64,000 bases of DNA. Source: Lysobacterales bacterium PRO7 (lineage in GTDB: Bacteria; Pseudomonadota; Gammaproteobacteria; Xanthomonadales; Rhodanobacteraceae). Below are positions 3,410 through 26,218 of this stretch, in pieces. The notes beneath the pieces are model-generated. The model was given only the letters and a program-made list of their open reading frames with translations. It did no database searches and was not told the origin of the DNA. A program made the translations under genes and the position numbers. The DNA lies in assembly GCA_021404785.1 (NCBI GenBank), contig QWHH01000001.1, forward strand, positions 156,760 through 220,759, written 5' to 3'. How positions within the stretch are numbered: position 1 is the stretch's first letter; each line of letters begins with the position of its first letter.

Positions 3410-3457
3410 GTCGTGCTGCGCCTGTTCGAACCGAAGGAAGACGCAGCTCAGGAATAA
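3410..3457 (+). pseudogene. 3' remnant of a paralogue of the 75-aa gene at 19178-19405
   Basis: Reads VVLRLFEPKEDAAQE* versus VVLRLYEPKEDAPQE* at 19358-19405; followed by the same terminator. Confidence 0.85.
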
Positions 3458-3474
3458 CCCTGCGGTTTCCGGCA

Positions 3475-3503
3475 ACCGGCGCCCTCGCGGCGCCGGTTTT
3501 TTT
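3475..3503 (+). terminator. Rho-independent terminator, identical to 19425-19453
   Basis: ACCGGCGCC-CTCGC-GGCGCCGG-T7. Confidence 0.85.
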
Positions 3504-3691
3504 ATGGCAGCGAATTCAAGATCAAATGCAGTGAGGCGGTCTTGCTGTTTCCTTCACCGTATCACGGCGTTCTCGTCGTCAAGGGCTGCGCGCGCCATGC
3601 GCGCTTGCATTGTCTTCGACCCCTGACGACATGCGCTGCGCCGTGCTGACGCCGGTTCCGGGCAATTCCGCCTGAGCAACCGGAGGACATC

Positions 3692-4830: not shown

Positions 4831-6681
4831 ATGAACATCAATATCGTTGGCACCATCCAGTCCATCCCCGTAGCTTCCCTCATCCTGTCGTCGCGCAATG
4901 CCCGCAAGACCGGAGGCCAGTCCGTCGAGGACTTGGCCGCTTCCATAGGCGCACAGGGACTGATCCAGAACCTCACCGTAACGCCGGCAGAGGGCAAGGA
5001 TAAGTTCGAGGTGGTGGCCGGTGGCCGTAGGTGGCGCGCATTGCGCCACCTCATCAAGACCAAAGCCTTGCCGAAGGATCACGAAGTTCCGTGCAAGATC
5101 GTCTGCGCCGAAGAAGCGGCGCAAATCAGTCTGGCTGAGAACATCATCCGGCAGGCCATGCACCCCGCCGACCAGTTCGAGGCGTTCAAGGCGCTGGTAG
5201 ACGATGGCATGCCCATCGAGGACGTGGCGGCCCGGTTTGGCGTGACCCCGCTGGTGGTGCAGCAACGGCTAAAACTGGCAAACGTCTCGCCGGTGTTGGT
5301 CGCCGAGTTCCGCGAGGGCGAAATCACCCTTGAGCAGATGATGGCGCTGGCGGTGACCGACGACCATGCGGCGCAGGAACGGGTGTGGGAAGCCGCCCCC
5401 AATGCTTGGCAGCGCACACCGAGCGAGTTGCGCGGGGCGTTGCTCGAATCCGACATCGACGCCAATCACGACCGGCGTGCGAAATACATCGGCATCGAAG
5501 CCTACGAGAAGGCGGGCGGCGTGGTGCGGCGCGATCTGTTCTCGGAAGCCGTGTATTTTGCCGATGCGGAATTGCTCAACCGGCTAGTGGACGAAAAGCT
5601 CCAGCGTGCGGCGGAGCGCGTGCGCCGGGAAGGATGGGGTTGGGTCGAATGCCGCACGCAATACGACTATGCCGAACTGCACCAATACGGACGGCTTGCG
5701 CCGACGCGGCGGGAGGCGACCAAGAAGGAGCAAGCCTTGCTCGACAAGCTGGACGAGCAGGAAGCCAAGTTGCAACAGGACGGCGAAGCGGAAGGCGCAA
5801 CGGACGAACGGCTTGAAGAAATCGGCGAAGCGCTCGATGCGCTTGCCGAGAAGCGCGAGGCCATCGAAGAAGCCCGACTCGTGGACGACCCACAGGCGCG
5901 CGCGAATGCCGGCGCGTTTGTGGTGCTCGACCATGACGGCAAGGTGCGGATCGAGCGCGGGCTTGTGCAGCGAAGCCAGAAAGCGCCAGGGCATGAGCCG
6001 CAGGAAGCGGCGGGCGAGGTGAAGAAAAAACCCAAGCCGGAATTTTCCGATGCGCTGACGCGCCGCTTGACCGCCGAACGCACGCTGGCGTTGCGGGCCG
6101 TGCTGGCGGCGCAGCCCGAACATGCGCTGACCGCTCTCGTTCATGCGCTGGTGCTGAAGGAGTTCTACAACGACAGGCACCCCGTGATCTGCATCACCGT
6201 CCGGGACGAATGCCATTTGCAGCGTTCGGGCATCGACGTGGACAAGACCAAGGCCGCGCAGGCGTTGCATGTCCTGCGCGCTGAATTGCAGGAAGCCTTG
6301 CCTGCGGATGATGCCGACCTGTGGAACTGGATCACCGCGCAGGATCAGGCGACGCAGTTGCGTTATCTCGCCTACTGCATCGTGCCGAGCGTGAATGCCA
6401 TGCAGGATCGCGCGACGGTGTCGCACACGACGTCGGCGCAGCCTGTTGAAGCCGTGCAGGCGCTCGCGGCCTTGCTCGGACTGGACATGGCCGACTGGTG
6501 GGAGGCGACGGCAGAAAACTTTTTTGGCTCGGTGTCGAAGGCCAAGCTCGCCGAAGCCGTGCGGGAAGTCAAAGGCGACTCGACCGCTGCGGCATTGGAC
6601 GGCATGAAGAAAGCCGGTGCCGTTACGGCGGCTGCTGCGGCGCTCGAAGGCACGCGCTGGTTGCCGACCCTGTTGCGTTGA
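4831..6681 (+). CDS. Long ParB/RepB/Spo0J-family protein (leading-region type)
   Basis: RBS aaggag; GLIQNLTV, AGGRRWRAL, SLAENIIRQAMHPADQFEAF; 616 aa. Confidence 0.92.
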   Translation: MNINIVGTIQSIPVASLILSSRNARKTGGQSVEDLAASIGAQGLIQNLTVTPAEGKDKFEVVAGGRRWRALRHLIKTKALPKDHEVPCKIVCAEEAAQISLAENIIRQAMHPADQFEAFKALVDDGMPIEDVAARFGVTPLVVQQRLKLANVSPVLVAEFREGEITLEQMMALAVTDDHAAQERVWEAAPNAWQRTPSELRGALLESDIDANHDRRAKYIGIEAYEKAGGVVRRDLFSEAVYFADAELLNRLVDEKLQRAAERVRREGWGWVECRTQYDYAELHQYGRLAPTRREATKKEQALLDKLDEQEAKLQQDGEAEGATDERLEEIGEALDALAEKREAIEEARLVDDPQARANAGAFVVLDHDGKVRIERGLVQRSQKAPGHEPQEAAGEVKKKPKPEFSDALTRRLTAERTLALRAVLAAQPEHALTALVHALVLKEFYNDRHPVICITVRDECHLQRSGIDVDKTKAAQALHVLRAELQEALPADDADLWNWITAQDQATQLRYLAYCIVPSVNAMQDRATVSHTTSAQPVEAVQALAALLGLDMADWWEATAENFFGSVSKAKLAEAVREVKGDSTAAALDGMKKAGAVTAAAAALEGTRWLPTLLR

Positions 6682-7204: not shown

Positions 7205-7570
7205 TTATGCGCGACGCTTGGTTGGTCGAAGGTGCTGACACAATTTTTGTGCGACATCCATAACGACCAATCGATCCGCCTCATGCAGATCGCTTAGCGA
7301 CAACGAAAGGGCAAGTGCTTGGTCGTCTGCACGAACAGAGCTTGCCGTCAAAAGTTCCGCCAAGGGGACTCGCAGAATTTGGGCGAGTGCATCAAGGGTT
7401 TTGAGCGATGCTGCGGCTGTTCCGCGTTCATATCGAGAAATTGTTTCCGTGGCGACGCCGATTTTTTCGGCGAGGTCGGCCTGCGTCCAGCTTCGCTTGT
7501 TACGCAATACAGCGAGATTCTGTCCAAGCTGTTTCGCGAACGCTGACCACTTGCTATCCCGAGATGCCAT
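7205..7570 (-). CDS. XRE-family helix-turn-helix regulator
   Basis: LRNKRSWTQADLAEKIGVATETISRYERG...SLKTLDALAQIL; start placed at the internal ATG 7570. Confidence 0.9.
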   Translation of the reverse strand: MASRDSKWSAFAKQLGQNLAVLRNKRSWTQADLAEKIGVATETISRYERGTAAASLKTLDALAQILRVPLAELLTASSVRADDQALALSLSLSDLHEADRLVVMDVAQKLCQHLRPTKRRA

Positions 7571-8075
7571 AGCTGCTGTCCTGAAGGGCAACGGCCATCG
7601 TTGTGCAGCGGCATAGCGACGCACAGGATATAATTTGTTGATAGACAACATTTCATGTTGTATTGTGCGTTCGCTCGAATACTCGAGCACGTCACCCAGA
7701 AGCTAGCGAAACTCGTGTCTCACGGTTACAGCATTACTTTTGCCTGTATCCAACAGGATGCAGTGACATCGCCCGCACTCCGCGCTGGCAGCCATGCCGC
7801 TGCGAAAGCACTCTCGGCATTCGACGCGGTGATGATGCAGCGCTTGCAGCCGCTCGCCGCACGTCCGCGCAGTGAACTCGCCGGCGCCGATTATCTGGAT
7901 GCGAGCGTGCTGGACTACGCCTTGGCCAAGGCGCTGGAGGCCGCGTTTCCGGAAAGCGGTGGTGAGCCGCCGGCACCGCTGGCGCGCGAATCTTTTATAT
8001 TGTGCATTACTGATGTGAATTCCAGCTCAGTTGTCGGGGTTTCTCCAGTAAATGCCGAGCGTGTTGGATGATGGT

Positions 8076-8147: not shown

Positions 8148-11100
8148 ATGTCGTTGCGAATCGGAGTGGACTCCGCGCGTCTTGCCGCGCGGGGAGGAGT
8201 CGGGAGCGCGTTTTGTCTGCTGTCTTTCATCGCCGGACTGTCGGTTCCGGCACCCGCCCACGCCAGCGTGCAGTTGCAAGGCTTCGGGGTCACGCCATCC
8301 GGCCCGGGAATCAAGCCTGCCGCCACCGGTGCCGGCACACCCGCGCCGGTTCCGGCGACGTGGAGCGAACCGTTGCCATCGGCCGACGTGTATTCCGATT
8401 CGGTCGGCGCGACACCAGCAACCTATCGGACAGATGAGAGCGGTGCAGCGACGTATTCCGTGCCAATCTACGTGCCGCCGGGCACGGCGGGCCTCGTACC
8501 TGCGTTGTCGCTGGTGTACAACAACCGCGGCGCGAACGGCCCGATGGGACCGGGTTGGAGCCTGGGCGGCCTGTCGGCGATTTCGCGTTGTAAGAAGGCC
8601 ACCGAGTACGGCGATGGCGCCGGGCCGTTTCCTTCGGTCAATTTCGATGGCGTCGCCGCCGATCAAGCGTATTGCCTCGATGGCGCACGCCTGCTCGACC
8701 TGAACAATGGCGCGGGTAATTGTCCGGCCGGCCAGTCCGGCGACACCGCCCACGCGTTCGGCCTGGAACTGGATCCCGCCACGCGCGTGTGCGGCTATGC
8801 CAAGACCGGCATCACCGGCTACGCCTATTGGCTGGCGCAGCCCAAGGACGGCAGTTACCGCGTGTACGGCACGGGCGGCAATTCGGCGCTGGTCCACAAC
8901 GATGGGCAAGGCAACCCTGACGCCACCCAGTATTTCTCGTGGGCACTGAATCGTATTGCCGATACGACCGGCAATACGGTCGAGTTCAGCTACACGCAGA
9001 ACGCCGCCACCGGCGAGATGGATGTTGCCGAAGTCGACTACACCGGCAAGATGGCAATAAGCGGCGTACTCGCGGCCAGCCCGACGTTCACGCGCACGCC
9101 CTACGCGAAGGTCGTGTTTTCGTACGCGACGCTGCCGGCTGCCAGCCAGCGCATCGACTACGTGTCGGGCATGAAGCTCGCGCTCACGCAGCAGCTGACG
9201 ACCATCACGGTCAGCGGCCCATCCAACATCAACGGTGACATTGGCACGTCGCAGGTCGCGCGCACGTATCACCTGCGCTACGGCACGCCGACCGGCAGCG
9301 GTCTTTCGGCGCTGACCTCTTTGCAGGAGTGCGTGCCAAACGGCGCGGGCGAGGTGTGCTATCCACGCACGCAATTCACGTGGGACAACGCCAGCGTCCA
9401 TGCGCCCGGTTTTCCCGGCACGCCGTCCACGCAAAGCTATAGCGGTCTGCAATACGCGATCGACTACAAGGTCGGCGATGTGGATGGCGATGGCAGACAA
9501 GATTTAGTGTGGGTCAAGGATCAAAGCTGCGACAGCACGGGTTCCGGTGCCACGCGTTTCCAGATTTATGTGTCGCGCGCCACCGGCACCGGCTTTGCCA
9601 CGGCGGTCGCGACCGGCGTGTACCTGTCGCGTCCGCCGCAGACCGGCCAAGTCGCGCTGCCGACGTGCGGCGCCGACTGGCGTTCTTATCACTTCGATTC
9701 GCTGTGGTACCTGTACGATTTTTCCGGCGACGGCCGCGATGACCTGCTCGCCGCCAACGGCACGGCGTGGAACGGCACGGCGTGGACGGACATGACGTGG
9801 AAGATTTATCCGGCCATCGCCTCAGGTACGGATTACACCTTCGATCACGCCAATCCGGTTGCAACCGGAATTCCGTCATGGCCGAGCGACGACGGCCTGT
9901 TCCTCGACGAAAACGCCGATGGCCTGCCGGATCTGATGGATTCGACGGCGCAGGGCATCATCACCTCGCACCTGTTGCAAAAGCAGCCATCTGGCGCCGC
10001 GCTCACGTTCAATTTTTCCGCGACCGCGACGCCCGTCGTGTTCACCACGCCGGTGTTTGGCGGCAGCACCTCGACACAGGAACTGGGCTTTTCCACCGGC
10101 GCGGGCCGCGACGTGCTCAATGCCGATCTCAATGGAGACGGCGCCGCCGACATGGTGTTGAAGGTGACGCAGGATACCTGCGGGACGGGCGGCATGGCTC
10201 CCAGCGCCCTGACCGCGCAACCCACGTTCAGTCCGTCCTCGATCCCGGCTTCGCCAACCTGCCATACGCGCTGGTACACCTTCCGCAACGACGGCATTCA
10301 GGCCGATGGCCTGCACATGACCTACGAGACCTTTATCGGCGACACGCTGACGGTGCCGGACGACGGCAGTTTCATCAATCTGGTCGATCTCAACGGCGAC
10401 GGCCAGACGGATCTCGTCTACACCAAACTGGTCAGCGGCAACTACACGTATTACTACCGCCTCAACGCCGGCAAGTCCGGCGACGCGGCCGCGACCGAGC
10501 GCTTCCTGCCGGAACAATCCACCGGCCTGACGCTTTCCACGAACTACGCCGAGCGCGTGCAGTTTCTCGATGTCAACGGCGATCACAAAATCGACCTGCT
10601 GTACTGGGATGGCGTCAGCGACCCCAGCGGCACCTATCCGCTCAAGGCGATGCTGTGGGGCACGACGGGTTTCGGCAGCGCAGTCGATGTCGGAAATTTC
10701 ACGCTCAACGCGATGAACCCGCTGTCGACGCAATCGTTCCTGATGGACGTCAACGGCGATGGTGGCCCGGATATGGTGACTTACGCCGGCGGCAGCCTGT
10801 CCGTGTTCGGCTACGGCCCGGCCTTCGGTGGCAACGATTTCGTCACGTCGGTCGTCAATGGCTTGGGTGCCTCGACCGGCATCACGTATTACCCACTGGC
10901 GTATACGTCCGGTTATGCGCGCGCCTACGACGGCCCGGGAAAGAGTTGGGGCCGCGGCTCGCCGGTGTTCGACGTGTTCTCGGCGATCTGGGTGGTACAC
11001 AGAGCATCGAGCAGTGCGCCGCTGGCGGGAGATTCCACTGCATTTCCGTCGTCGAGTGCCGTCGTTTATCGCTACTCGGGCGCGAAGATTCAGGCGGGAG

Positions 11101-14100
11101 GACGCGGCTTCCTCGGCTTCGCCACCGTACAAGCCGAGAACCAGCAGCCGACGCAGGATACGTCCAAGTACCTCGTCACGACCACCGAGTACCGGCAGGA
11201 TTTTCCGTACATCGGCCGGCCCGATCACACGGTGGCAGAACTCGAATCGACGCTGCAACCCGATCCGTGCGTGAGCTCGCCAGGTGATTCGTGCTTCGTG
11301 CACAACCCGCCGCCCTGCGGCAGCCACGGCGTCATCTGCAACATTGCGCAGAGCGCTTCGATCGGAGTCGGTGGTCAGGTGTTGAGCGACGCGCAAGACG
11401 ACTACACGAGTACGCCGGCGTTTGCACCCGGCACTGTGCAGCCGCTGATGCCGTACCTGTCCAGTTCCGTCGAACAGAAGTTTGACGTCGCGACGCCTGG
11501 GGCATCGAGCCACGAGATCACAAGTTCCTTCGGCGAAGACATCTACGGCAACGTCACAAGTTCCTCGGTGATCAGCAGCGAGTCCGGTGTTACCGACGAG
11601 TCCAAGACGACAACGAACATCTACGGCTGCACGGTGTCGCCGCCGACGAAGAACTGTTCGACGCTCAGTACCGAATGGCAGCGACTCGGTCGCTTGTCGC
11701 TCAGCACGGTCACGAGCAGCCGGCCCGGACAGACCAATAACCTGCGCCGCGCCAGTTTCGAGTACGACCCGACGACTCTACTGCGCATCGCCGACATTCA
11801 AGGGCCTTACGACTCGACCGACGAACCGATCGTCAACGTCCTCAAGACGATGAGTCTGCGAACGGACCTCATTCGCGATGCTGATGGCAACGTGATTGAG
11901 CAGGTGCAGTGCAGCACCTATCACTTCGCCAATCGCGCGGCCTGCACGGATTTGACCAATTTTCAGCAACGCCAGTGGCAATCCGATCCGACCAAGATTC
12001 AGCGCTACGCCAAGTGGAGCTATGAATCGTTGGGACGCTTCGAGCTGTACAAGCTTGCACCATTCTATTCAGCGAGTGCGGCGAATAACACGGACGAGAA
12101 CATCGCCGAGTACGTCGGCATCGCCTTGTCCGGCAGTTCGCCGATGCGGGCGTTTACGCCGCAGGCGATTCTTCCCGTCGTCGTCAACCGCGACGTGTTC
12201 GGCAATCCGGCGAACAAGGTATCCGCCGCCGGCGATCAGTGGTCGATGGTGTATGGCACATTGGGCCGTGCGTATTTTGCCGAAGACGTAACCACTGGCG
12301 GCTTCTCGCGCACGACGTACACGTGGTGCAAGGATGCAAACAGCACCGACATTCCCGCCGCGGCGCCTCGCGCCAACTGCCCGGTCGGTGGCGTCTATCG
12401 CGTAACGACCGACAGCACCGCCAGCAGCACGTATGCGGGCCAGAGCATCGCGCCGACGACGTGGGCGTACTTCGACGTGCTCGGACGCGAGATATTGCGC
12501 ACCAAGCGCATCTACCAGCAAAGTGCTACCAGTAAGTTTCACTGGTCGAGCGTGGCCACGACCTACGACAGCACGGGCCGTAACGCGACGGTGTCCACGC
12601 CGTATCTTTCCATCGACCCGACGACGACGCAGACCGGCGTGGCATCCAGCCGCGCGGGCACATTGCAGACCGGCGCCAGCGCGCCAGGCACCGCGACCGC
12701 GACCTACGATGCAGTGGATCGGGCCACTGATCAAAGCCATCCGGAAGAGGCGGCGAACACGCCCAGCGATTCGACGTGGAATTATTCGACGTTGACCACG
12801 ACCGCAACCAATCCGCGCGGCTACAAAACGCAGCAGGTCAAGAACGCGCGCGACGAAGTCATGCAGATCGCCGCGCCGTTCGGCCAGAGCAATGCGCTGA
12901 CCGTCTCCTATGGCCGCGATGCGGTGGGCAATCTGACCAGCATTTCGCGCACGCCGGCGGACGGTAGTTCGGCCGGCCATCTCATTCAGACCTCGATGAT
13001 CTACGATCGTCTGGGCCGCAAGACCGGCATGACCGATCCGGACAAGGGCGGCTGGACATACAGCTACAACGCACTTGGCGAACCCGTCCAACAAATCGAC
13101 GCGAAGGGCCAGACGCAGAACCAGTACCGCGATGCGCTGGGCCGGCTGTATCTGCGCACGGAGAACCGGAGTAACGGCAGTGGCGGCTTCACCTCGGAGC
13201 CGTCTGGCGCGTGGGAGTTCGACACGGCGTTGCGCAGCGACGGATCGACGATTCTGGGCGTAATCCACAGCGAGTCCAACGGCATTGGCGGCTTCACGCG
13301 CACCACGGAATACAACGACTATGGCCGCGTGGATCACTCGGTCACGCAGATGGACGGATACTCGTATACCGAGCGTCAGACTTGGGATCAGTTCGGTCGT
13401 CCGTTCCAGCACTTCGACCCGAGCACCACGGTATCCAACGCGGGCGAACTGACGATCTACTCGACCGACGGCTATCCGATCCAGACCCAGGAAGCCGCCG
13501 ACAGCGTAAACGGCGTTTACTACGACACGGTGATCGCCCTGTCCGAACGCGGTCAGGTGACGGACGAGATTTTCCACAACAACGCGGCATTGGAGAGTAC
13601 ACGCACGTTCGATCACGCCACCGGGCGCGCCTTGACCATCGACGCGGGCAGCGGCGCGCTGCAGAACTGGAGCTACGACTACGATAAACACAGCAATGTG
13701 CTGTATCGGCTGAACCACGCGACCGGCTACAACCTGCGCGAGGACTTCACCTACGACAATCTGGATCGGCTGCAAACCGTGAAGCTGACGGTCAACGGCG
13801 CGGTGCAGGGCACGGTGACGAGCGCCTACGATCAACTGGGCAATCCCACCAGCCGGGGCAGCCAAAGCTGGACGTATGCCACGCTGGAAACCGGCTGCAC
13901 CCAATATGCCGGGCCGCACGCGGCGAGCAAACTCGGCAGCTCCACGTACTGCTACGACGCGAACGGCAATCAGACCACGGCCAACTACGGCGGCGGACAA
14001 ACCCGCACGATCACGTACACCGGCTACGACTTGCCGGCGCAGATTGCGACGAACGGCTACCCGAGCAATGCCACGGAAAGTTTTGCCTATGCGCCGGATC

Positions 14101-15725
14101 GCGGCATGTTCAAGCGCGTGGAAGGCATCACCGGCGGCACGAACGACAATATCTTCTGCAACGGCTTTGACACCACTACGAACACCTGTCCGAACACCGC
14201 GAGCAGTGCCGCGACGACGTACTACGTGGGCAACGTCGAGGCGCGCATCAGCGGCAGCAGCACGACGACCAAGCGCTATATCGGCGGCTACCTCGTCGTC
14301 ACCACGACGAACACGAATCCGACGCCGGTCTACGCCTACCTGTTCCGCGATGCGCTCGGCTCCATCGACGTGATTGCCAACGAACTGGCGCAAATACAGC
14401 AGCGGCAGAGCTTCGACGTGTGGGGCAATCGCAGAGACGCGAGCGCCAGCGGCGGCTGGGGCTTGCTGCCCACGGCCACGGCGGCGAGCTTCGATACCAG
14501 TCGAACCTTCCAGGGCTACACCGGACACCAGCAACTCGATCCGGTAGGCCTAGTTCACATGAAGGGCCGCCTCTACGATCCCCAACTGGGCCGGTTTATC
14601 CAAGCCGACCCGATGACGGAACGCGATCCCACGCAGGGGCTGAATCGCTACAGCTATGTCCTCAACAACCCGATGAGCCTCACAGACCCGAGCGGGGATC
14701 TCAGTTTTCGGCAAATACTTGGCATCGCGATCGCTGTTGTGGCAGCTTACTTCGGACAATACGAACTTTCGCGCGATGCGCTGGCGTGGAGCTTTGGTGT
14801 ATCGGTGGCCGGCGGCTTCCTGTCCGCCTACGTGGCGACGGGAAGTCTGAAAGCGGGACTGTGGGGCGCGTTTGCGGCTGGAGTATTCTGGGGCATCGGC
14901 ACGGCATTTTCGGACGTGGCCGGAGGACCCATGCAAGACGGCTCGGCCATGACGATGCGCTACAGCACGGGCAGCTTCGCGGCGAAGATCGCCGCGCATG
15001 CGGCTGGCGGCGGCGTCATCAGCAGCCTTGAAGGCGGTAATTTTGGATCGGGATTTTTGGCTGCCGGCGCGACAGAAGTATTGTCGCCAGCAATCGAGAA
15101 AATGGACAATGTGCCAGGGCAAATCATGGCTGCGGCTATGGTTGGTGGCACCGTCTCGAAGATAAGCGGGGGTCGATTTGCCACAGGTGCCGAAACTGCA
15201 CTATTTCAAGAATTGTTCAATCACGTTGTTCACAGCGCGATGCAGGAGGCATTAGCCAAGAACTATAGCGAGGACAAGCCTTACTACCATAGATACGGCG
15301 GCGAGGGCGAAGGCGACTGGGCAGTTTGCGTGCGCAGCGACGCGTGGTGCACTCAGCCCAACGGCTATGCAGCGTTGATCAATGGCTTTGCCTACCCTGG
15401 GCAGGATCACCCTGTCGAAGACGGTAGCAGTGAGGAAGTCTGGTTCGCTGGAGTAAGCGCTGGTCACATTTATACTTTTACCGAACCGGATACGTACTCA
15501 ATTTTCAATTTGACTGCTCCCGACCATATTTTCTACAGCGGCTACGTCTGGCGAAGCGTGGTATGGGAGGGTGACACCCTATACTTGCGGACATATGGCG
15601 AAGGTAATGATTCAGGTTTCTTGAGTTGGTTCGGCAACATGGAGCTTTGGAAACCTGGGTTTAATCAATACAACTACCAGTTCCGTTATCAGATGATCCA
15701 GAACTGGCTGAAGGAGCAACCATGA
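8148..15725 (+). CDS. rhs: Giant RHS/YD-repeat polymorphic toxin: signal peptide, SpvB-like domain, FG-GAP/VCBS repeats, RHS core, C-terminal payload
   Basis: GAATYSVPIYVPPGTAGLVPALSLVY, repeated GDVDGDGRQD/DLNGDG motifs, YDRLGR/YDQLGN repeats, GYTGHQQLD, GRFIQADP, NNPMSLTDPSG; RBS gagggg. Confidence 0.95.
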   Translation: MSLRIGVDSARLAARGGVGSAFCLLSFIAGLSVPAPAHASVQLQGFGVTPSGPGIKPAATGAGTPAPVPATWSEPLPSADVYSDSVGATPATYRTDESGAATYSVPIYVPPGTAGLVPALSLVYNNRGANGPMGPGWSLGGLSAISRCKKATEYGDGAGPFPSVNFDGVAADQAYCLDGARLLDLNNGAGNCPAGQSGDTAHAFGLELDPATRVCGYAKTGITGYAYWLAQPKDGSYRVYGTGGNSALVHNDGQGNPDATQYFSWALNRIADTTGNTVEFSYTQNAATGEMDVAEVDYTGKMAISGVLAASPTFTRTPYAKVVFSYATLPAASQRIDYVSGMKLALTQQLTTITVSGPSNINGDIGTSQVARTYHLRYGTPTGSGLSALTSLQECVPNGAGEVCYPRTQFTWDNASVHAPGFPGTPSTQSYSGLQYAIDYKVGDVDGDGRQDLVWVKDQSCDSTGSGATRFQIYVSRATGTGFATAVATGVYLSRPPQTGQVALPTCGADWRSYHFDSLWYLYDFSGDGRDDLLAANGTAWNGTAWTDMTWKIYPAIASGTDYTFDHANPVATGIPSWPSDDGLFLDENADGLPDLMDSTAQGIITSHLLQKQPSGAALTFNFSATATPVVFTTPVFGGSTSTQELGFSTGAGRDVLNADLNGDGAADMVLKVTQDTCGTGGMAPSALTAQPTFSPSSIPASPTCHTRWYTFRNDGIQADGLHMTYETFIGDTLTVPDDGSFINLVDLNGDGQTDLVYTKLVSGNYTYYYRLNAGKSGDAAATERFLPEQSTGLTLSTNYAERVQFLDVNGDHKIDLLYWDGVSDPSGTYPLKAMLWGTTGFGSAVDVGNFTLNAMNPLSTQSFLMDVNGDGGPDMVTYAGGSLSVFGYGPAFGGNDFVTSVVNGLGASTGITYYPLAYTSGYARAYDGPGKSWGRGSPVFDVFSAIWVVHRASSSAPLAGDSTAFPSSSAVVYRYSGAKIQAGGRGFLGFATVQAENQQPTQDTSKYLVTTTEYRQDFPYIGRPDHTVAELESTLQPDPCVSSPGDSCFVHNPPPCGSHGVICNIAQSASIGVGGQVLSDAQDDYTSTPAFAPGTVQPLMPYLSSSVEQKFDVATPGASSHEITSSFGEDIYGNVTSSSVISSESGVTDESKTTTNIYGCTVSPPTKNCSTLSTEWQRLGRLSLSTVTSSRPGQTNNLRRASFEYDPTTLLRIADIQGPYDSTDEPIVNVLKTMSLRTDLIRDADGNVIEQVQCSTYHFANRAACTDLTNFQQRQWQSDPTKIQRYAKWSYESLGRFELYKLAPFYSASAANNTDENIAEYVGIALSGSSPMRAFTPQAILPVVVNRDVFGNPANKVSAAGDQWSMVYGTLGRAYFAEDVTTGGFSRTTYTWCKDANSTDIPAAAPRANCPVGGVYRVTTDSTASSTYAGQSIAPTTWAYFDVLGREILRTKRIYQQSATSKFHWSSVATTYDSTGRNATVSTPYLSIDPTTTQTGVASSRAGTLQTGASAPGTATATYDAVDRATDQSHPEEAANTPSDSTWNYSTLTTTATNPRGYKTQQVKNARDEVMQIAAPFGQSNALTVSYGRDAVGNLTSISRTPADGSSAGHLIQTSMIYDRLGRKTGMTDPDKGGWTYSYNALGEPVQQIDAKGQTQNQYRDALGRLYLRTENRSNGSGGFTSEPSGAWEFDTALRSDGSTILGVIHSESNGIGGFTRTTEYNDYGRVDHSVTQMDGYSYTERQTWDQFGRPFQHFDPSTTVSNAGELTIYSTDGYPIQTQEAADSVNGVYYDTVIALSERGQVTDEIFHNNAALESTRTFDHATGRALTIDAGSGALQNWSYDYDKHSNVLYRLNHATGYNLREDFTYDNLDRLQTVKLTVNGAVQGTVTSAYDQLGNPTSRGSQSWTYATLETGCTQYAGPHAASKLGSSTYCYDANGNQTTANYGGGQTRTITYTGYDLPAQIATNGYPSNATESFAYAPDRGMFKRVEGITGGTNDNIFCNGFDTTTNTCPNTASSAATTYYVGNVEARISGSSTTTKRYIGGYLVVTTTNTNPTPVYAYLFRDALGSIDVIANELAQIQQRQSFDVWGNRRDASASGGWGLLPTATAASFDTSRTFQGYTGHQQLDPVGLVHMKGRLYDPQLGRFIQADPMTERDPTQGLNRYSYVLNNPMSLTDPSGDLSFRQILGIAIAVVAAYFGQYELSRDALAWSFGVSVAGGFLSAYVATGSLKAGLWGAFAAGVFWGIGTAFSDVAGGPMQDGSAMTMRYSTGSFAAKIAAHAAGGGVISSLEGGNFGSGFLAAGATEVLSPAIEKMDNVPGQIMAAAMVGGTVSKISGGRFATGAETALFQELFNHVVHSAMQEALAKNYSEDKPYYHRYGGEGEGDWAVCVRSDAWCTQPNGYAALINGFAYPGQDHPVEDGSSEEVWFAGVSAGHIYTFTEPDTYSIFNLTAPDHIFYSGYVWRSVVWEGDTLYLRTYGEGNDSGFLSWFGNMELWKPGFNQYNYQFRYQMIQNWLKEQP

Positions 15726-16471
15726 TGCGCATCGTGATTGCAGTCTTGTTGAGCCTTGCTATGAGCAGTTGCAGCAGCAAATCGTTTAACCCGGTAGCTC
15801 GATTCGATATTCGAGCATCAGATGTCGATCAAGCGAAGGTGATCGAGACCATGAAGAAATTTGCTGGCCGGGAAGGTTTCAAAATCTTTGCGAGAGACGA
15901 TATGCCTAAGCAAGGCCGCTTCGTATCTCAGCTCGATCTTCGGCGTGCCGACGGTGTTGCCGTAAGTACAAGCAATTTCATGAAGGCTGACACGCTTCAA
16001 ACTTTCTTCTACGCAGAAAAGCCCGGTGCGGACTGGCAACCCGTGAAGGTCGCATTGCAGCGCGAAATTGCCGCCGCCCTGGGTGGTCGCGGGAAGATCG
16101 TGGAGGTTCCAGTTAAATCAGCGCCTGCCCGAAGCAGTCCATCTACTGTCCTTGCTACGTTTCGTTTCCGCATTACGGATGGTCAGCAGTCTTCCTTATC
16201 CGCGGCGCTCAAAGCATTCGCGAATGCGAACGGGTTCAAAATGCGAAATTTTCCAAACAAGACCGGAAATGGCTTCACGGCAGAAATGTCGCGACAGGGC
16301 TTGCAAGTGATCATCGCCGATCCACTTGAACCGGAGATATTTGACATTTGGGTTGACGAAAACGGCAACGAGGCAGTGTCGGCGACGACAATTGAAGCGC
16401 TCTCGCGTTCCCTGAAGAGCGCGCTTGCGCAAGTTCCCGGTTACGCGGAATTGCCCGACAGGAATCCATGA
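15722..16471 (+). CDS. Candidate cognate immunity lipoprotein with an internally duplicated domain
   Basis: ATGA overlap with the rhs stop; lipobox-like LAMSSC; reduced GC. Confidence 0.7.
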   Translation: MMRIVIAVLLSLAMSSCSSKSFNPVARFDIRASDVDQAKVIETMKKFAGREGFKIFARDDMPKQGRFVSQLDLRRADGVAVSTSNFMKADTLQTFFYAEKPGADWQPVKVALQREIAAALGGRGKIVEVPVKSAPARSSPSTVLATFRFRITDGQQSSLSAALKAFANANGFKMRNFPNKTGNGFTAEMSRQGLQVIIADPLEPEIFDIWVDENGNEAVSATTIEALSRSLKSALAQVPGYAELPDRNP

Positions 16472-16672
16472 CTACATTTAGCCCCGTTGAGCGAATCTGG
16501 CAAGCTGAAGGCCCGATGCTCGACCGCTCATGGCGCTCGATGCGGATAGGGATGGAAAGTACACACTGACCTACCATTTGGCGGACGTTGTTCTGGTGAG
16601 CTGAGTCCAAAAATGTATTCCAGCGCAGTTGGCCTCAGAATTGGCCTAAAAGCGGAACGAGCATGTGCGCAC

Positions 16673-17182
16673 ATGAAGACGTTACCAAGAGTATTTCTTA
16701 GTATTCTGTTCTCAACCTTGGTCGCGGCGTGCGCGAGCATCGAAGCGACCGGGCATTTATTCGACGGACAGGTCGAGCGACGCGAAGGCTATGGAACGCT
16801 CGTACTATATAGGCCGCCACTATTTGTCGGGAGTGCTTGGTTTCCAACGGTCCGAATAAACGGGACGCCCGTGGCCAAGTTGGTGAGCGGCGGTTACACG
16901 TCCATCGCACTGCCACCAGGCCGGTACCACATTTCAGGGAACGGTCAATTCGATGATCTGTACGAAGCAGATTTTGCGATAAAGACGGACAGTACGACGT
17001 TTGCCGAATTCCAGTTCGATTTGCAAGGCAATGGAGGGGTGACGCCCATCGCTGGTGCTTTTGTGCCATCCGTGGGCGTGCAGATCAAAAGCATTCGATG
17101 GGTCGTGACTGAAGGGCCTGACGTGGCGCCTCCGGGGTTGGCCGACTGTCGATATTTCGACCCAATTGTTCGGGCCTTGTAG
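16673..17182 (+). CDS. DUF2846-like lipoprotein
   Basis: Lipobox LVAAC; LVLYRPP..G...VRINGTPVAKLVSGGYTSIALPPGRYHI. Confidence 0.75.
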   Translation: MKTLPRVFLSILFSTLVAACASIEATGHLFDGQVERREGYGTLVLYRPPLFVGSAWFPTVRINGTPVAKLVSGGYTSIALPPGRYHISGNGQFDDLYEADFAIKTDSTTFAEFQFDLQGNGGVTPIAGAFVPSVGVQIKSIRWVVTEGPDVAPPGLADCRYFDPIVRAL

Positions 17183-17229
17183 TTCGCGCTGAAAAATCGC
17201 GACATCCGAGGAAAAGAGGGGAGAAGGCC

Positions 17230-17658
17230 GTGCGCGTGACTTCGAGACTCTGTGACGTTGTTGCGCTGGCCGCGCTATTGGCAGGCTGCAGTCCATGCCA
17301 CGATCTAAAGGACGGCCCCGGTCTGCTCGGCGGAGGTTTTAAGGACCAGGAGATTTCACCTGGCCTTTTTGGGATTCTCGTGAAATCCGACGCGGCACTA
17401 TGGACGAACCGCGACGCTGTACGCGCGACTTGGTCACGACGCGCACACGAATTGTGCGGCGGCGATTACGTCGAGCTCGCGTCACAGGAACTTGACGAGA
17501 CGCTCAAACCGATCAACAGCGAAGTGTTGCGCGACCACGTATCGAGCCGAATCGCTTTCGCTCTGTGTAAGTCATCGAAATTGTCACAACAGGAAGCGTT
17601 GGATGTCATCGAACGGCTTGGCATGCTCCCCCCACCGCCGCGCGCGGCACCGATGTAA
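17230..17658 (+). CDS. Hypothetical lipoprotein
   Basis: GTG start after gagaagg; lipobox LLAGC; WSRRAHELCGG. Confidence 0.7.
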   Translation: MRVTSRLCDVVALAALLAGCSPCHDLKDGPGLLGGGFKDQEISPGLFGILVKSDAALWTNRDAVRATWSRRAHELCGGDYVELASQELDETLKPINSEVLRDHVSSRIAFALCKSSKLSQQEALDVIERLGMLPPPPRAAPM

Positions 17659-17728
17659 CGTAGTTACGTGCCCGGAGTTACGGCCTCTGCGACGCAAAAA
17701 AGCCAGGTAACGAGCGTTCCACGCACGA

Positions 17729-18604
17729 TTGAAATATTCGACACGTGAAATATTCGACACGTCCCGGCTCCTTCGCCATGCTGCTGGAATCTGCTCATTT
17801 ATCCGTCTGAATGCTTTCACGTGCGGCCTTCTTGCTTGTCATTCTTCTCGAACAGACTTCGCCAAGGCAAAGAGCTTGGCGACAGATGCCGTGAACGCGG
17901 GTGATGTCATGGCGAATCAGCTCCTGGGGAGGATCTACCAGGAGGGTCTTGGGGTATCACCTGACGTGGATACGGCCTTTGTGTCTTTTCCCAAAGCCGC
18001 TGATGCTGGCGATCCCGTCGCTCAGTACGATGTAGCACGGGCCTATTATTTCGGCGAAGGTGTCTCCAAGAACATCGAACTAGCGTATCGCTTTGCGAGG
18101 AGCGCATATTGCGGGAAAGTAAAGCCATCCGCGCTGATTGTTTCGCGAGAATATTTTGACAACTCGGATTCTGCTGAGAGCGTTACCACCGGCATCCGGG
18201 TATTGGACGACTTGGCCGCAGACGGTGATGGAGACGCTTGCCTGGTCATTTCAGATATCTACCTGTCCTCGAAGTACAACCGGAAGGATCCAAGCAAGGC
18301 GATCATCTACCTAAGGTGTGCGGCGAAAGCTGGATTGGTTCGGGGTAAGTACTTGTATGGAGCAACATTGCTTCGGTATGGGAAAAGCCATGAAGATTTC
18401 AACGCCGCTGAGCAATATCTTACGGAAGCGGCGAATAGCGGCAGCGTGGATGCGGCGTTCGACCTGGGAGTTGCATACCAACGTGGTATAGAACTCCAGG
18501 GCGATGTCGAAAAAGCACGCCATTGGCTAGAGGTTGCTGTTGAGCGTGGTAATGTTGACGCGGCACAAATGTTGAAAACTATGAGCCCACACGCTGACCA
18601 ATGA
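17729..18604 (+). CDS. Sel1-like repeat protein; start uncertain, possibly frameshifted
   Basis: Repeats LGRIYQEGLGV, AADAGDPVAQYDVARAYYFGEGV, AANSGSVDAAFDLGVAYQRG. Confidence 0.85.
   Translation: MKYSTREIFDTSRLLRHAAGICSFIRLNAFTCGLLACHSSRTDFAKAKSLATDAVNAGDVMANQLLGRIYQEGLGVSPDVDTAFVSFPKAADAGDPVAQYDVARAYYFGEGVSKNIELAYRFARSAYCGKVKPSALIVSREYFDNSDSAESVTTGIRVLDDLAADGDGDACLVISDIYLSSKYNRKDPSKAIIYLRCAAKAGLVRGKYLYGATLLRYGKSHEDFNAAEQYLTEAANSGSVDAAFDLGVAYQRGIELQGDVEKARHWLEVAVERGNVDAAQMLKTMSPHADQ
17730..17761. repeat. Perfect 16-bp tandem duplication
   Basis: TGAAATATTCGACACG x2. Confidence 0.95.
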
Positions 18605-19177: not shown

Positions 19178-19405
19178 ATGGCCAAGAAACCCACCAAACC
19201 CGCTTCCGATGCCACGCGCTTGACGGCCTACACAGTCCGCGAGTTCGAGCACAACAACGAAACCAAGCGCGACTGGATGCGCATCGGCGTTGCCTTCCCG
19301 CACGAGGATGGCAAGGGATTCAATCTGACGCTGCACGCGGTTCCGGTCGACGGCAGTGTCGTGCTGCGCTTGTACGAGCCCAAGGAAGACGCACCGCAGG
19401 AATGA
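19178..19405 (+). CDS. Conserved small mobile-element protein (75 aa)
   Basis: RBS cggaga; WMRIGVAFPHEDGKGFNLTL motif. Confidence 0.8.
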   Translation: MAKKPTKPASDATRLTAYTVREFEHNNETKRDWMRIGVAFPHEDGKGFNLTLHAVPVDGSVVLRLYEPKEDAPQE

Positions 19406-19424
19406 TCCTGCGGGTTCAATGACG

Positions 19425-19453
19425 ACCGGCGCCCTCGCGGCGCCGGTTTTTTT
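19425..19453 (+). terminator. Rho-independent terminator, identical to 3475-3503
   Basis: ACCGGCGCC-CTCGC-GGCGCCGG-T7. Confidence 0.85.
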
Positions 19454-19872
19454 GTGGCCGCGATTCAAACGGCGCACTGGCGCGCGCCGACCGGCCAAGC
19501 TAAGCACTCCGTTGCCGGCGTGTTGCTCTCCGAGCGGCAATGCTTCCGGGCCCAGGCAGTTTCCGCGTTTTTCGAGTGCCGCGGAATCGGCAAATACCGC
19601 GCCGTCGTGTAGGAAATTCCTGACAGCGTCCAATTCACGGCAGCTTTCGCCAGACGCAATTCACTCGGGTTCGGCGAGGCGATGCGGCGATTCGCGTCTG
19701 GCCGGTTCGCCTCATCGCGTGGCGATTTTCACGACGGCCTCGGCGGTGTTTTCTGCCGCCAGCGTGGCGCTTGCGGCCTTTGCGCGGCAAGGGTCAAGAC
19801 GAGCGCTACGCGCCCTTGCCGCGCGACCGTGCGCGCTTTCCGTGGCGGCCCACACCGCCCACGGAGGCCATC

Positions 19873-21108: not shown

Positions 21109-22026
21109 ATGACCGACTCCGGAACCGGCGCGCTCAGCCGCCACGATGCGCGCTTCATCCGCGATGCCCTGTCCATTCAGGACGCCGATCCGCGCGATAC
21201 GCACAATCTCGGCTATACGGCGCGCATTCTCACCATCGCCACGCTCCCGCACCGCGCCCAGCCGGGGGACCATTTCGAGCGCACGAATGGGAATTACCGG
21301 CTGGTCGTGCAGGCGATGCCGGGCGCCGGCCTGCCGTTCGGCAGCTATCCACGTCTGTTGCTGGCGTGGCTTGCCACGGAAATCGTGCGCACGCGGCAGC
21401 GGGAGCTTGCCATCGGCGCCTCGATGGCGGACTTCCTGCGCCAGCTTGGCCTCGGGCGTAGCGGCGGGCGTGCGGCTCACGCGCGCAGTGCCGGCACGAT
21501 CCATCGGCTTAAATGCCAAATCATGAGCCTGTTCGGCTCGCGGCTCATCCTGCACAAGCAGTCCTCGCGCGAGCAGATCGAACTGCTGCAGATCGGCGAG
21601 AGGTTTGACTTCTGGACCGATCCCGCGAAACCCGGTGTGCTGCCCGGAACCTTGCGCGTCAGCGAACCCTTGTACGAGCATATCCTGCGCGCGCCCGTGC
21701 CCGTGGACCTGCGCGCCTTGCGCGCGCTGAAACGCTCGCCGCTGGCATTGGACGTGTATACCTGGCTTACGCACCGCAACTTCGTCCAGCAGAACGGCGG
21801 ACGCAAGCAAGCCATGGTTCCCTGGGGCGCCTTGCAGCGGCAGTTCGGTTCAGATTACCCACTCGACAGCCGCGGACGCGCCGACTTCAAGAAGGCGTTT
21901 CACAGTGCCTATCGGCGCGTGCAACTGGTTTATCCGAAAGCCAGTGTCCGCGACAACGGCGATTGCCTGACCCTGATCACGACCGCGCCGCACATTCGTA
22001 CCCATCGGTTGATCGGTACGCGCTGA
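21109..22026 (+). CDS. repA: Plasmid-type replication initiator (RepA_C family)
   Basis: GLPFGSYPRLLLAWLATE, SPLALDVYTWLTHR, WGALQRQFGSDY. Confidence 0.92.
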   Translation: MTDSGTGALSRHDARFIRDALSIQDADPRDTHNLGYTARILTIATLPHRAQPGDHFERTNGNYRLVVQAMPGAGLPFGSYPRLLLAWLATEIVRTRQRELAIGASMADFLRQLGLGRSGGRAAHARSAGTIHRLKCQIMSLFGSRLILHKQSSREQIELLQIGERFDFWTDPAKPGVLPGTLRVSEPLYEHILRAPVPVDLRALRALKRSPLALDVYTWLTHRNFVQQNGGRKQAMVPWGALQRQFGSDYPLDSRGRADFKKAFHSAYRRVQLVYPKASVRDNGDCLTLITTAPHIRTHRLIGTR

Positions 22027-26077: not shown

Positions 26078-26193
26078 TGTACATGAGCCCTCGCAAACCC
26101 AATGGCAGCAAGGCTTTTTGATGTACATGCCATGCGCGGCATGTACATCGGACGCCGCAAACCGCGCCGCTATGCGAGTTTGCGATGTACATC
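26078..26193. other. Candidate oriT
   Basis: Intergenic region upstream of the relaxase; 12-bp perfect inverted repeat 26120-26131/26138-26149 and four TGTACAT copies. Confidence 0.6.
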
Positions 26194-26218
26194 CCCCGAG
26201 ACATGGCGTCAGGACGCC

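Follow-up and report, generated by a model that had tools for sequence, protein, structure and literature searches.

Among the backbone genes of an integrative and conjugative element (ICE) of Lysobacterales bacterium PRO7 lies a large gene, rhs, whose predicted product is a polymorphic toxin of the RHS type. We studied this gene, together with the lipoprotein gene (P0002) whose start overlaps its stop codon, in a window of 64,000 nucleotides (nt; contig QWHH01000001.1, positions 156,760 to 220,759; the whole stretch of DNA analysed) and in the context of the genome of its host (2.81 Mb in 19 contigs, 99.5% complete). The parts of the rhs product (in amino acids, aa) and the adjoining gene are given here with the evidence on which each of them rests, including models calculated with AlphaFold2 (AF2):

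8148..15725, plus strand: rhs gene (P0001), encoding a predicted RHS polymorphic toxin of the TcdB/TcaC class, 2525 aa (open reading frame and translation; Pfam and NCBIfam domains)
8148..8264, plus strand: Sec-type signal peptide, aa 1-39, predicted cut after AHA (by eye from the sequence)
8436..8591, plus strand: SpvB-like N-terminal domain, best stretch aa 97-148 (PF03534, 1.4e-14)
9471..10601, plus strand: FG-GAP / integrin-like beta-propeller, aa 442-818 (PF01839 FG-GAP, 4.5e-9; PF13517 FG-GAP_3, 9.9e-13)
10725..11186, plus strand: TcdB_toxin_midN region, aa 860-1013 (PF12256, 4.4e-9)
11187..14480, plus strand: RHS/YD-repeat shell, aa 1014-2111, boundaries approximate (PF05593 RHS_repeat, 4.6e-8, e.g., aa 1619-1656)
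14481..14696, plus strand: RHS-associated core with the autoproteolysis motifs YDPQLGRF...ADP...PMSLTDPSG, aa 2112-2183 (TIGR03696, 1.9e-18)
14697..15203, plus strand: Gly/Ala-rich hydrophobic helical pre-toxin module, aa 2184-2352 (family conservation, AF2)
15204..15722, plus strand: exchangeable toxin tip, aa 2353-2525 (helix-grip-like predicted fold, unnamed family)
15722..16471, plus strand: candidate cognate immunity lipoprotein P0002, 249 aa (lipobox LAMSSC; start overlaps the rhs stop, ATGA)

The RHS shell and the TcdB/TcaC class

The start codon of rhs (ATG) stands seven codons past the preceding stop, and within its own genome the rhs product matches nothing but itself. Its leader, as read by eye from the sequence, consists of a basic n-region, a 16-residue hydrophobic core (VGSAFCLLSFIAGLSV) and the predicted cleavage site AHA/S; the full-length homologues begin with comparable leaders, and homologues also possess the TEN_YD-shell domain. 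The motif PMSLTDPSG starts at aa 2175 (nt 14670), exactly where an earlier note on this DNA, made from its letters alone, had placed it, and leaves a payload of 342 aa behind it. The residues of the RHS-core motifs are nearly invariant across 34 family members, and we infer autoproteolytic cleavage at DPSG. The earlier note had read the gene as a Sec-like leader joined in one chain to SpvB, FG-GAP and RHS regions, i.e., as a fused cocoon of the BC type with a cleavable payload; the sequence of the leader, the Pfam and NCBIfam matches and the DPSG motif bear this reading out, with the cleavage itself being a prediction. Between the YD repeats, we observed the motif DNIFCNGFD (14145-14171, at about aa 2000, with a second Cys flanking it), and the family consensus retains D.IFC.GF at this position.

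This architecture had been taken to be unusual; it is, however, that of a published class of proteins. A signal peptide, SpvB, an integrin-like propeller and RHS define the TcdB/TcaC class (Zhang, de Souza, Anantharaman, Iyer, Aravind 2012, PMC3482391), with which the rhs product shares the signal peptide, SpvB, the propeller, the RHS repeats, a variable tip, an adjacent immunity gene and an orphan cassette. As judged from the sequence comparisons described below, the rhs product is shown to be an RHS polymorphic toxin of the TcdB/TcaC class: its tip is modular and recombines, and the lipoprotein gene varies along with it. The architecture being already known, what sets this locus apart from the class and is new here are the families of the tip and of the immunity protein, both unnamed, and a conserved, encapsulated hydrophobic module, the Gly/Ala-rich helical segment of 170 aa inside the payload.

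The Gly/Ala-rich module and the exchangeable tip

When the payload was used as the query, about 30 proteins (about 2,200-2,650 aa) with the same SpvB/FG-GAP/RHS build were recovered, with named relatives in Dokdonella, Rhodanobacteraceae, Tahibacter and Sulfuricaulis. These sister proteins match the first 50-59% of the payload only, a portion that corresponds to the Gly/Ala-rich module, and their tips differ (one is a phage-lysozyme domain, another a DUF4329); P0003, encoded by a metagenome-assembled genome (MAG) of the Rhodanobacteraceae, is the only protein covering 99% of the payload. Compared with the rhs product, P0014 has 89-96% identity in the shell, 71% / 61% in the Gly-rich module and 17% in the tip, while the corresponding values for P0003 are 40-57%, 64% / 50% and 66-79%. 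The breakpoints in identity fall at DPSG and near aa 2353, the latter at an AF..LFN motif. At the level of the aligned sequences, the tip of about 170 aa is shown to be exchanged by recombination, independently of the shell and together with the downstream gene. The length of the payload is constant across the family (about 340-370 aa) and lies inside the range of 201-400 aa that is typical for the hypervariable regions of TcC proteins (PMC7861908).

The Gly/Ala-rich region had previously been counted as part of the unique payload. The region is indeed present; rather than being unique, it is a conserved module of the family that is independent of the tip. It matches DUF637 (PF04830) weakly, in a stretch confined to the 56 final positions of the profile (E 4.6e-4; 20.4 bits, where the cut-off is 26.6), and three homologues of the tip likewise match DUF637 weakly. 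This domain has been listed as PT637, a pre-toxin domain of toxins of the type V secretion system (Zhang et al., PMC3482391). An AF2 model of the module calculated from 34 sequences is all-helical (pLDDT 80.3, pTM 0.54) and consists of three long, hydrophobic helices resembling transmembrane (TM) segments (payload residues 4-25, 29-48, and 51-76), followed by four or five amphipathic ones; the hydropathy of the module reaches 1.5-1.65. When this model was compared with the PDB by Foldseek, nothing significant was found (best E 0.6), and the very weak matches obtained were membrane proteins. Since the module is conserved whatever tip and downstream gene follow it, we regard it as a trafficking or pre-toxin module and not as the toxin itself. 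Among the other loci with the same tip, three carry the long module after DPxG and one a partial copy; in seven (L008, L009, L010, L012, L013, L015, and L016) DPxG leads straight into one hydrophobic helix of about 20 residues, and the remaining loci lack any such segment; a hydrophobic pre-segment is thus common but not obligatory.

The tip opens with FQELFNHVVH at aa 2353 (nt 15204) and contains YYHRYGGE at aa 2379 and RTYGEG at aa 2481. It is as unrecognized as the earlier note had held it to be: neither the tip itself nor its homologues (65 and 54 of them scanned singly) matched a family in Pfam, NCBIfam or PHROGs, a single-sequence query of the PDB sequences gave an insignificant match to the ribonuclease (RNase) U2 only, and a 54-sequence profile gave none. 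Likewise, a Foldseek search of viral structures found nothing, and tblastn of the tip against plasmid and phage collections gave no match. The tip is not unique to the rhs gene, though, as had been supposed, and instead represents a recurrent family. HMMER, run exhaustively over 1.84 billion cluster representatives, returned 182 of them at E <= 1e-3 (36 at <= 1e-10), in proteins of about 60 to more than 3000 aa in which the match mostly lies near the C-terminal end; word-indexed searches returned one protein with the single query and six with a profile, and a search for related loci with the single tip sequence recovered the P0003 locus only. Within the order, the tip is carried by 22 of 400 other sampled genomes and by 17 of 99 genera, the one of the window included, and it stands at the extreme C-terminus in every mapped locus. 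Nine of ten large carriers that we scanned are RHS proteins and the tenth is a PT-VENN protein of the CdiA type; members of the tip family also occur on Rhs proteins of 1300-1650 aa.

The conserved positions of the family (in tip numbering) comprise a Y-H29-x-Y motif, a pair of cysteines (C42 and C49) that is compatible with a disulfide, P65, T104, R117, G132, G134, N145 and the invariant residues N102, H108, and G113. Because the word-indexed search returned so few proteins, the alignment from which the AF2 model of the tip was built is shallow (8 sequences; pLDDT 79.5, pTM 0.76). The model consists of a helix, a hairpin, a second helix, five long antiparallel strands and two C-terminal helices. 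A Foldseek comparison of the residues after DPSG, a check that the earlier note had suggested, gave nothing significant for the module, as described above, and for the tip led to START/Bet v1 proteins only: the top 50 of 50 matches in the PDB are helix-grip proteins of this type (PYR/PYL receptors, MLP, PR-10, and AHSA1-like proteins), with E from about 1e-3, probabilities of 0.85-1.0, TM-scores of 0.30-0.64 and root mean square deviations (rmsd) of 4-18 Angstrom (best match, 3q63: TM-score 0.64, rmsd 4.0). The uniformity of these matches supports a helix-grip (START/Bet v1-like) fold for the modelled tip, an assignment that is provisional because the TM-scores are moderate and the alignment is shallow. 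Conserved residues alternate along three neighbouring strands (N102/T104, G113/V115/R117, and T130/G132/G134) and consequently line one face of the sheet in the model, as would be expected of a functional face lining a cavity.

The downstream gene and the site of action of the tip

The leader of P0002 (…LSLAMSSC) is of the lipoprotein type, and the protein has no family in Pfam, NCBIfam or PHROGs. Homologues of its first 133-136 residues are encoded directly after the same tip in three independent loci:

L003: 151-aa lipoprotein after the tip, 53% identity to P0002
L005: lipoprotein after an orphan Rhs C-terminal cassette, 30% identity to P0002
L034: single-domain lipoprotein, 88% identity to P0002 residues 1-133

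In the last of these (L034:735-9647; a 60 kb metagenome contig from the ENA), a gene for a 2522-aa sister RHS protein, whose own tip is another one, precedes a 3' fragment of the tip under study (94% aa identity), behind which comes the lipoprotein gene, an arrangement that, to judge from its gene order, is a displaced orphan cassette of tip and immunity gene. A search of the 400 other genomes from the order gave no homologue of P0002. The suggestion made earlier that the gene at 15722-16471 encodes the antidote has gained from these data, the ATGA overlap and the homologues in L003, L005, and L034 making it the likely one. We consider it highly probable, on the grounds of these sequences, that rhs and P0002 encode a polymorphic antibacterial toxin and its cognate immunity protein.

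P0002 possesses about 113 further C-terminal aa (aa 137-249; 16130-16468) that are absent from the L003 and L034 homologues. An internal duplication in P0002 finds no support, the similarity of this region to the first domain being insignificant (E 0.75).

The gene next to the tip encodes a protein of the cell envelope in each of the 22 loci: a lipoprotein or signal-peptide protein in 9, and a small protein with 2-5 TM segments in 13. Seven of these 13 TM proteins form one detectable family, and no Pfam family matched the TM proteins. Open reading frames for lipoproteins or signal-peptide proteins are also found downstream of sister RHS genes that possess other tips. A separate observation concerns one Rhodanobacteraceae MAG, in which L003:15922-16680 and L033:16204-16962 encode lipoproteins of 252 aa that are 78% identical to each other; each stands as the second gene downstream of its RHS gene, and the tips of these two RHS loci differ. 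This lipoprotein may be an accessory of the family rather than a tip-specific immunity protein.

That the tip is paired with an envelope-located protein in 22 of 22 loci suggests a target in the periplasm or the membrane. Given that all the antidotes are located in the envelope, that the tip has a conserved pair of cysteines and that one sister protein carries a lysozyme tip, we expect with good confidence, again from sequence, that the site of action of the tip is the periplasm or the outward side of the inner membrane. Precedents for such antidotes exist: the immunity proteins against lipid II hydrolases of the colicin M type are either anchored periplasmic or integral membrane proteins (PMC5277000), and those against polymorphic toxins directed at lipid head groups are without exception TM proteins or lipoproteins, one of these toxins reportedly having a START-like helix-grip tip (PMC12419801). 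The rhs payload resembles the colicin M family (PMC5277000, PMC5821083) in having a domain, here probably acting in the periplasm, in a polymorphic toxin and in showing the same dichotomy between anchored and integral-membrane immunity. It differs from this family in its predicted fold and in lacking sequence similarity to it: there was no Colicin_M match from Pfam in the payload, the tip or 65 homologues, nor any ColM structure among the top fold matches, so that the analogy is one of function only. With the START-like tip carried by Cystatin-type proteins (Burroughs and Aravind 2025, PMC12419801), compared by description only, the tip has in common a helix-grip toxin domain, as predicted here, and a putative immunity protein located in the envelope; the carrier there is a Cystatin-like domain, whereas here it is an RHS protein.

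The location of the antidotes bears on three other explanations for the activity of the payload. One of them holds that the tip is an RNase of the T1/U2 type acting in the cytoplasm, and phmmer indeed matched about residues 6-80 of the tip to RNase U2 (E 0.47); in addition, the YYHRY motif is YxHxY-like, which we take to recall the active-site region of the T1 family. An E-value of 0.47 is not significant, however, and neither the 54-sequence profile nor the fold search recovered an RNase from the PDB. A cytoplasmic target would also be a misfit with downstream proteins that are exported or membrane-embedded in 22 of 22 loci. We hold an RNase to be extremely unlikely and have rejected this explanation.

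Alternatively, the Gly/Ala-rich helices might kill by forming a pore or ionophore in the inner membrane of the target cell, with the C-terminal domain serving to target or to regulate them. The three TM-like helices of the AF2 model, with their hydropathy of 1.5-1.65, would be suited to such a role, the only (very weak) fold matches of the module are membrane proteins, and polytopic membrane proteins follow the tip in 13 of 22 loci. Small polytopic membrane proteins are typical immunity proteins of pore-forming colicins. The module is conserved, though, in sister proteins whose tips (a lysozyme among them) and downstream genes are unrelated, and it follows from this conservation that immunity tracks the tip and not the module. 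Moreover, the tip also occurs with one short hydrophobic helix, or with none, after DPxG, and the orphan cassette of L034 retains a fragment of the tip and the immunity gene without the module. We therefore assign only a low probability to killing by the helices.

A third explanation remains within the envelope and sees the tip as a periplasmic cell-wall hydrolase, i.e., an amidase or peptidase of the Cys-His type or some other enzyme acting on peptidoglycan. The nearly invariant C49 is placed at the N-terminal end of a helix (residues 51-61), N102 and H108 are invariant, the immunity proteins are exported as are those against T6SS (type VI secretion system) amidase effectors, and the lysozyme tip on a sister RHS protein implies that the family does deliver wall enzymes. 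The fold and family searches speak against such an enzyme: none of the 50 best fold matches in the PDB is papain- or NlpC-P60-like, all of them being helix-grip proteins, and no peptidase or amidase of Pfam matched the tip or 65 homologues. The second conserved Cys, seven residues away from C49, suggests a disulfide instead, and polytopic membrane immunity proteins would be unusual for enzymes of this kind. A wall hydrolase thus appears improbable to us.

Delivery, mode of action and genomic setting

How the rhs product would reach a target cell was assessed by searching the genome for known delivery systems. TssC, Hcp, and PAAR had no match across the genome, and the rhs product itself contains no PAAR domain. 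The TcA families VRP1 (PF03538) and TcA_TcB_BD (PF18276) had no match in the genome either, and neither of them matched any control genome, the sensitivity of this search being unproven. With this reservation on TcA, the earlier statement that a TcA, PAAR or Hcp partner is missing from the window holds for the genome as a whole. A type II secretion system is present (GspL and three secretins). A compact, ICE-borne RHS cocoon in a genome without T6SS and TcA matches narrows the possible routes of delivery.

Rhs effectors of the T6SS (P. protegens RhsA, Photorhabdus Rhs1; PMC8636562) resemble the rhs product in their RHS cocoon, their C-terminal autoproteolysis (predicted for the rhs product) and their toxin-immunity pairs; unlike them, the rhs product has no PAAR or prePAAR, is encoded in a genome without a T6SS, and has its hydrophobic helices in the payload and not at the N-terminus. 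The likeness to the BC cocoons of Tc toxins (Photorhabdus TcdB2-TccC3, Yersinia entomophaga YenB-YenC) extends to the same domains, here fused, the DPxG site and a payload of less than 40 kDa (PMC7861908). One might accordingly consider the rhs product an insecticidal or otherwise eukaryote-directed BC subunit of the Tc type with a TcA partner that is encoded at another site or no longer present. SpvB, TcdB_toxin_midN and the RHS core are arranged as in TcB-TcC, natural B-C fusions exist, and the size of the payload fits the hypervariable regions of TcC (PMC7861908). Set against this is the failure to detect VRP1 or TcA_TcB_BD in a nearly complete genome, as well as an immunity gene that is translationally coupled to rhs, an orphan tip-immunity cassette, and the sharing of the tip with a PT-VENN protein of the CdiA type and with ordinary Rhs proteins. 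The rhs product also possesses a Sec leader; to our knowledge, classical TcB proteins do not. The inferred target is the bacterial envelope, and the rhs product is not a member of the Tc system; we regard an insecticidal function as very unlikely and have rejected it. Identity with the periplasmic toxin PT4 (PT4 and PT6 of Nachmias et al., 10.1101/2021.10.19.465003, both compared by description only) is unlikely as well, since the hosts of PT4 are enterobacteria and the tip had no match among plasmids.

Overall, we think it likely that rhs encodes a polymorphic toxin of the TcdB/TcaC class that acts against bacteria, at their envelope, and that is paired with a lipoprotein immunity protein and carried on a conjugative element. 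In such a scheme, the Sec system would export the rhs product, and a closed cocoon would form around the cleaved payload; type II secretion, vesicles or lysis are possible ways by which the cocoon could leave the producer. The payload would be released at a neighbouring Gram-negative cell, where the tip would be active within the periplasm or on the outside of the inner membrane, while P0002 would neutralize the tip in the envelope of the producer. The tip, with its predicted START-like helix-grip fold, might bind or cleave a membrane lipid or a lipid-linked precursor of the cell wall, with an effect analogous to that of colicin M. This lipid-directed mechanism is derived from the structural model, and we put it forward as a tentative and rather doubtful part of the scheme; if confirmed, a lipid-directed helix-grip toxin would extend the START fold to a new enzymatic use. 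The earlier note had described a self-contained secreted toxin container. The build of a cocoon stands, while self-contained delivery is not supported by our data.

Several points weigh against this scheme. Toxicity, cleavage, secretion and immunity are all predicted from sequence, the size of the folded cocoon (about 270 kDa) may exceed what a type II secretin can pass, and no device for entry through the outer membrane was identified. The fold of the tip is predicted from 8 sequences, with START TM-scores that are moderate and rmsd values that are high; no sequence profile ties the tip to START, and no SRPBCC-type model of Pfam or NCBIfam matches the tip or its homologues. Stoichiometric binding of a lipid would make for only weak toxicity, and the conserved residues (H/N/T/H/R) resemble no catalytic precedent; the positions of C49, at a helix N-terminus, and of the invariant H108 would also suit a Cys-His hydrolase. 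Finally, in P0134 (608 aa), a protein with VWA and TPR domains, a tip-like domain (E 1.9e-5) forms the N-terminal part, which is a non-toxin context and might hint at an ancestral function of the fold. A bolder version of the scheme, in which this Rhodanobacteraceae-type RHS family delivers toxins into the periplasm of other bacteria independently of both T6SS and TcA, the encapsulated Gly/Ala-zipper helices are the entry device that inserts into the envelope of the target and carries the tip across the outer membrane, and the tip is a START-like enzyme whose catalysis destroys an envelope lipid or a wall precursor linked to lipid, strikes us as unlikely; if true, the START-like tip would represent a new toxin activity for this fold.

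The genes of the ICE that surround rhs include the following:

4831-6681: ParB-like gene, upstream of rhs
7205..7690, minus strand: divergent XRE-family HTH regulator, upstream of rhs (PF01381, 1.8e-16)
16613..18604, plus strand: three more co-oriented genes for exported proteins, i.e., a DUF2846-like lipoprotein, a 142-aa lipoprotein and a Sel1-repeat protein (Pfam, N-termini)
21109-22026: RepA, downstream of rhs
Downstream of rhs: ParB-domain gene, TraF-like S26 peptidase, VirB11-like ATPase
26102-28255: relaxase, downstream of rhs
28252-30270: TraG coupling protein, downstream of rhs

The gene had been assigned to the leading region of an ICE. It does lie among ICE backbone genes; a leading position, which is a matter of the origin of transfer (oriT) and the polarity of transfer, is putative only. 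Since the toxin-immunity pair sits on the ICE, cells losing the element would be penalized, and the ICE may use the pair to enforce its own maintenance.

The GC content falls from about 0.62 to 0.48-0.53 over 15200-16000, which includes the last 500 nt of rhs and agrees with the lower-GC C-terminal domain described in the earlier note, and it remains low across the next genes. Relatives of the N-terminal 1000 aa of the rhs product within the same genus are patchy and distant (<=44% identity), a distribution that fits horizontal acquisition. An imperfect direct repeat of about 100-110 nt (86% identity), which contains a GC-rich terminator hairpin, is present at about 3410-3519 and 19358-19468; it is clear in a pairwise alignment and was missed by a repeat search at seed 14. 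Its two copies bracket a block that consists of the ParB-like gene, the XRE regulator, rhs and the lipoprotein gene, and this block may have been inserted into the ICE or be a scar left there by recombination.

No homologues of the three exported proteins encoded at 16613..18604 adjoin related RHS loci, and no conserved partner gene was found beside four sister RHS loci, where XRE-type regulators alone recur. HTH_3/HTH_31 genes lie just upstream of related RHS genes (L003:7028-7336, L032:6208-6510, and L032:7346-7636), as the XRE regulator does with rhs, and this recurrence hints at a transcriptional control that is shared by the RHS genes of the family.

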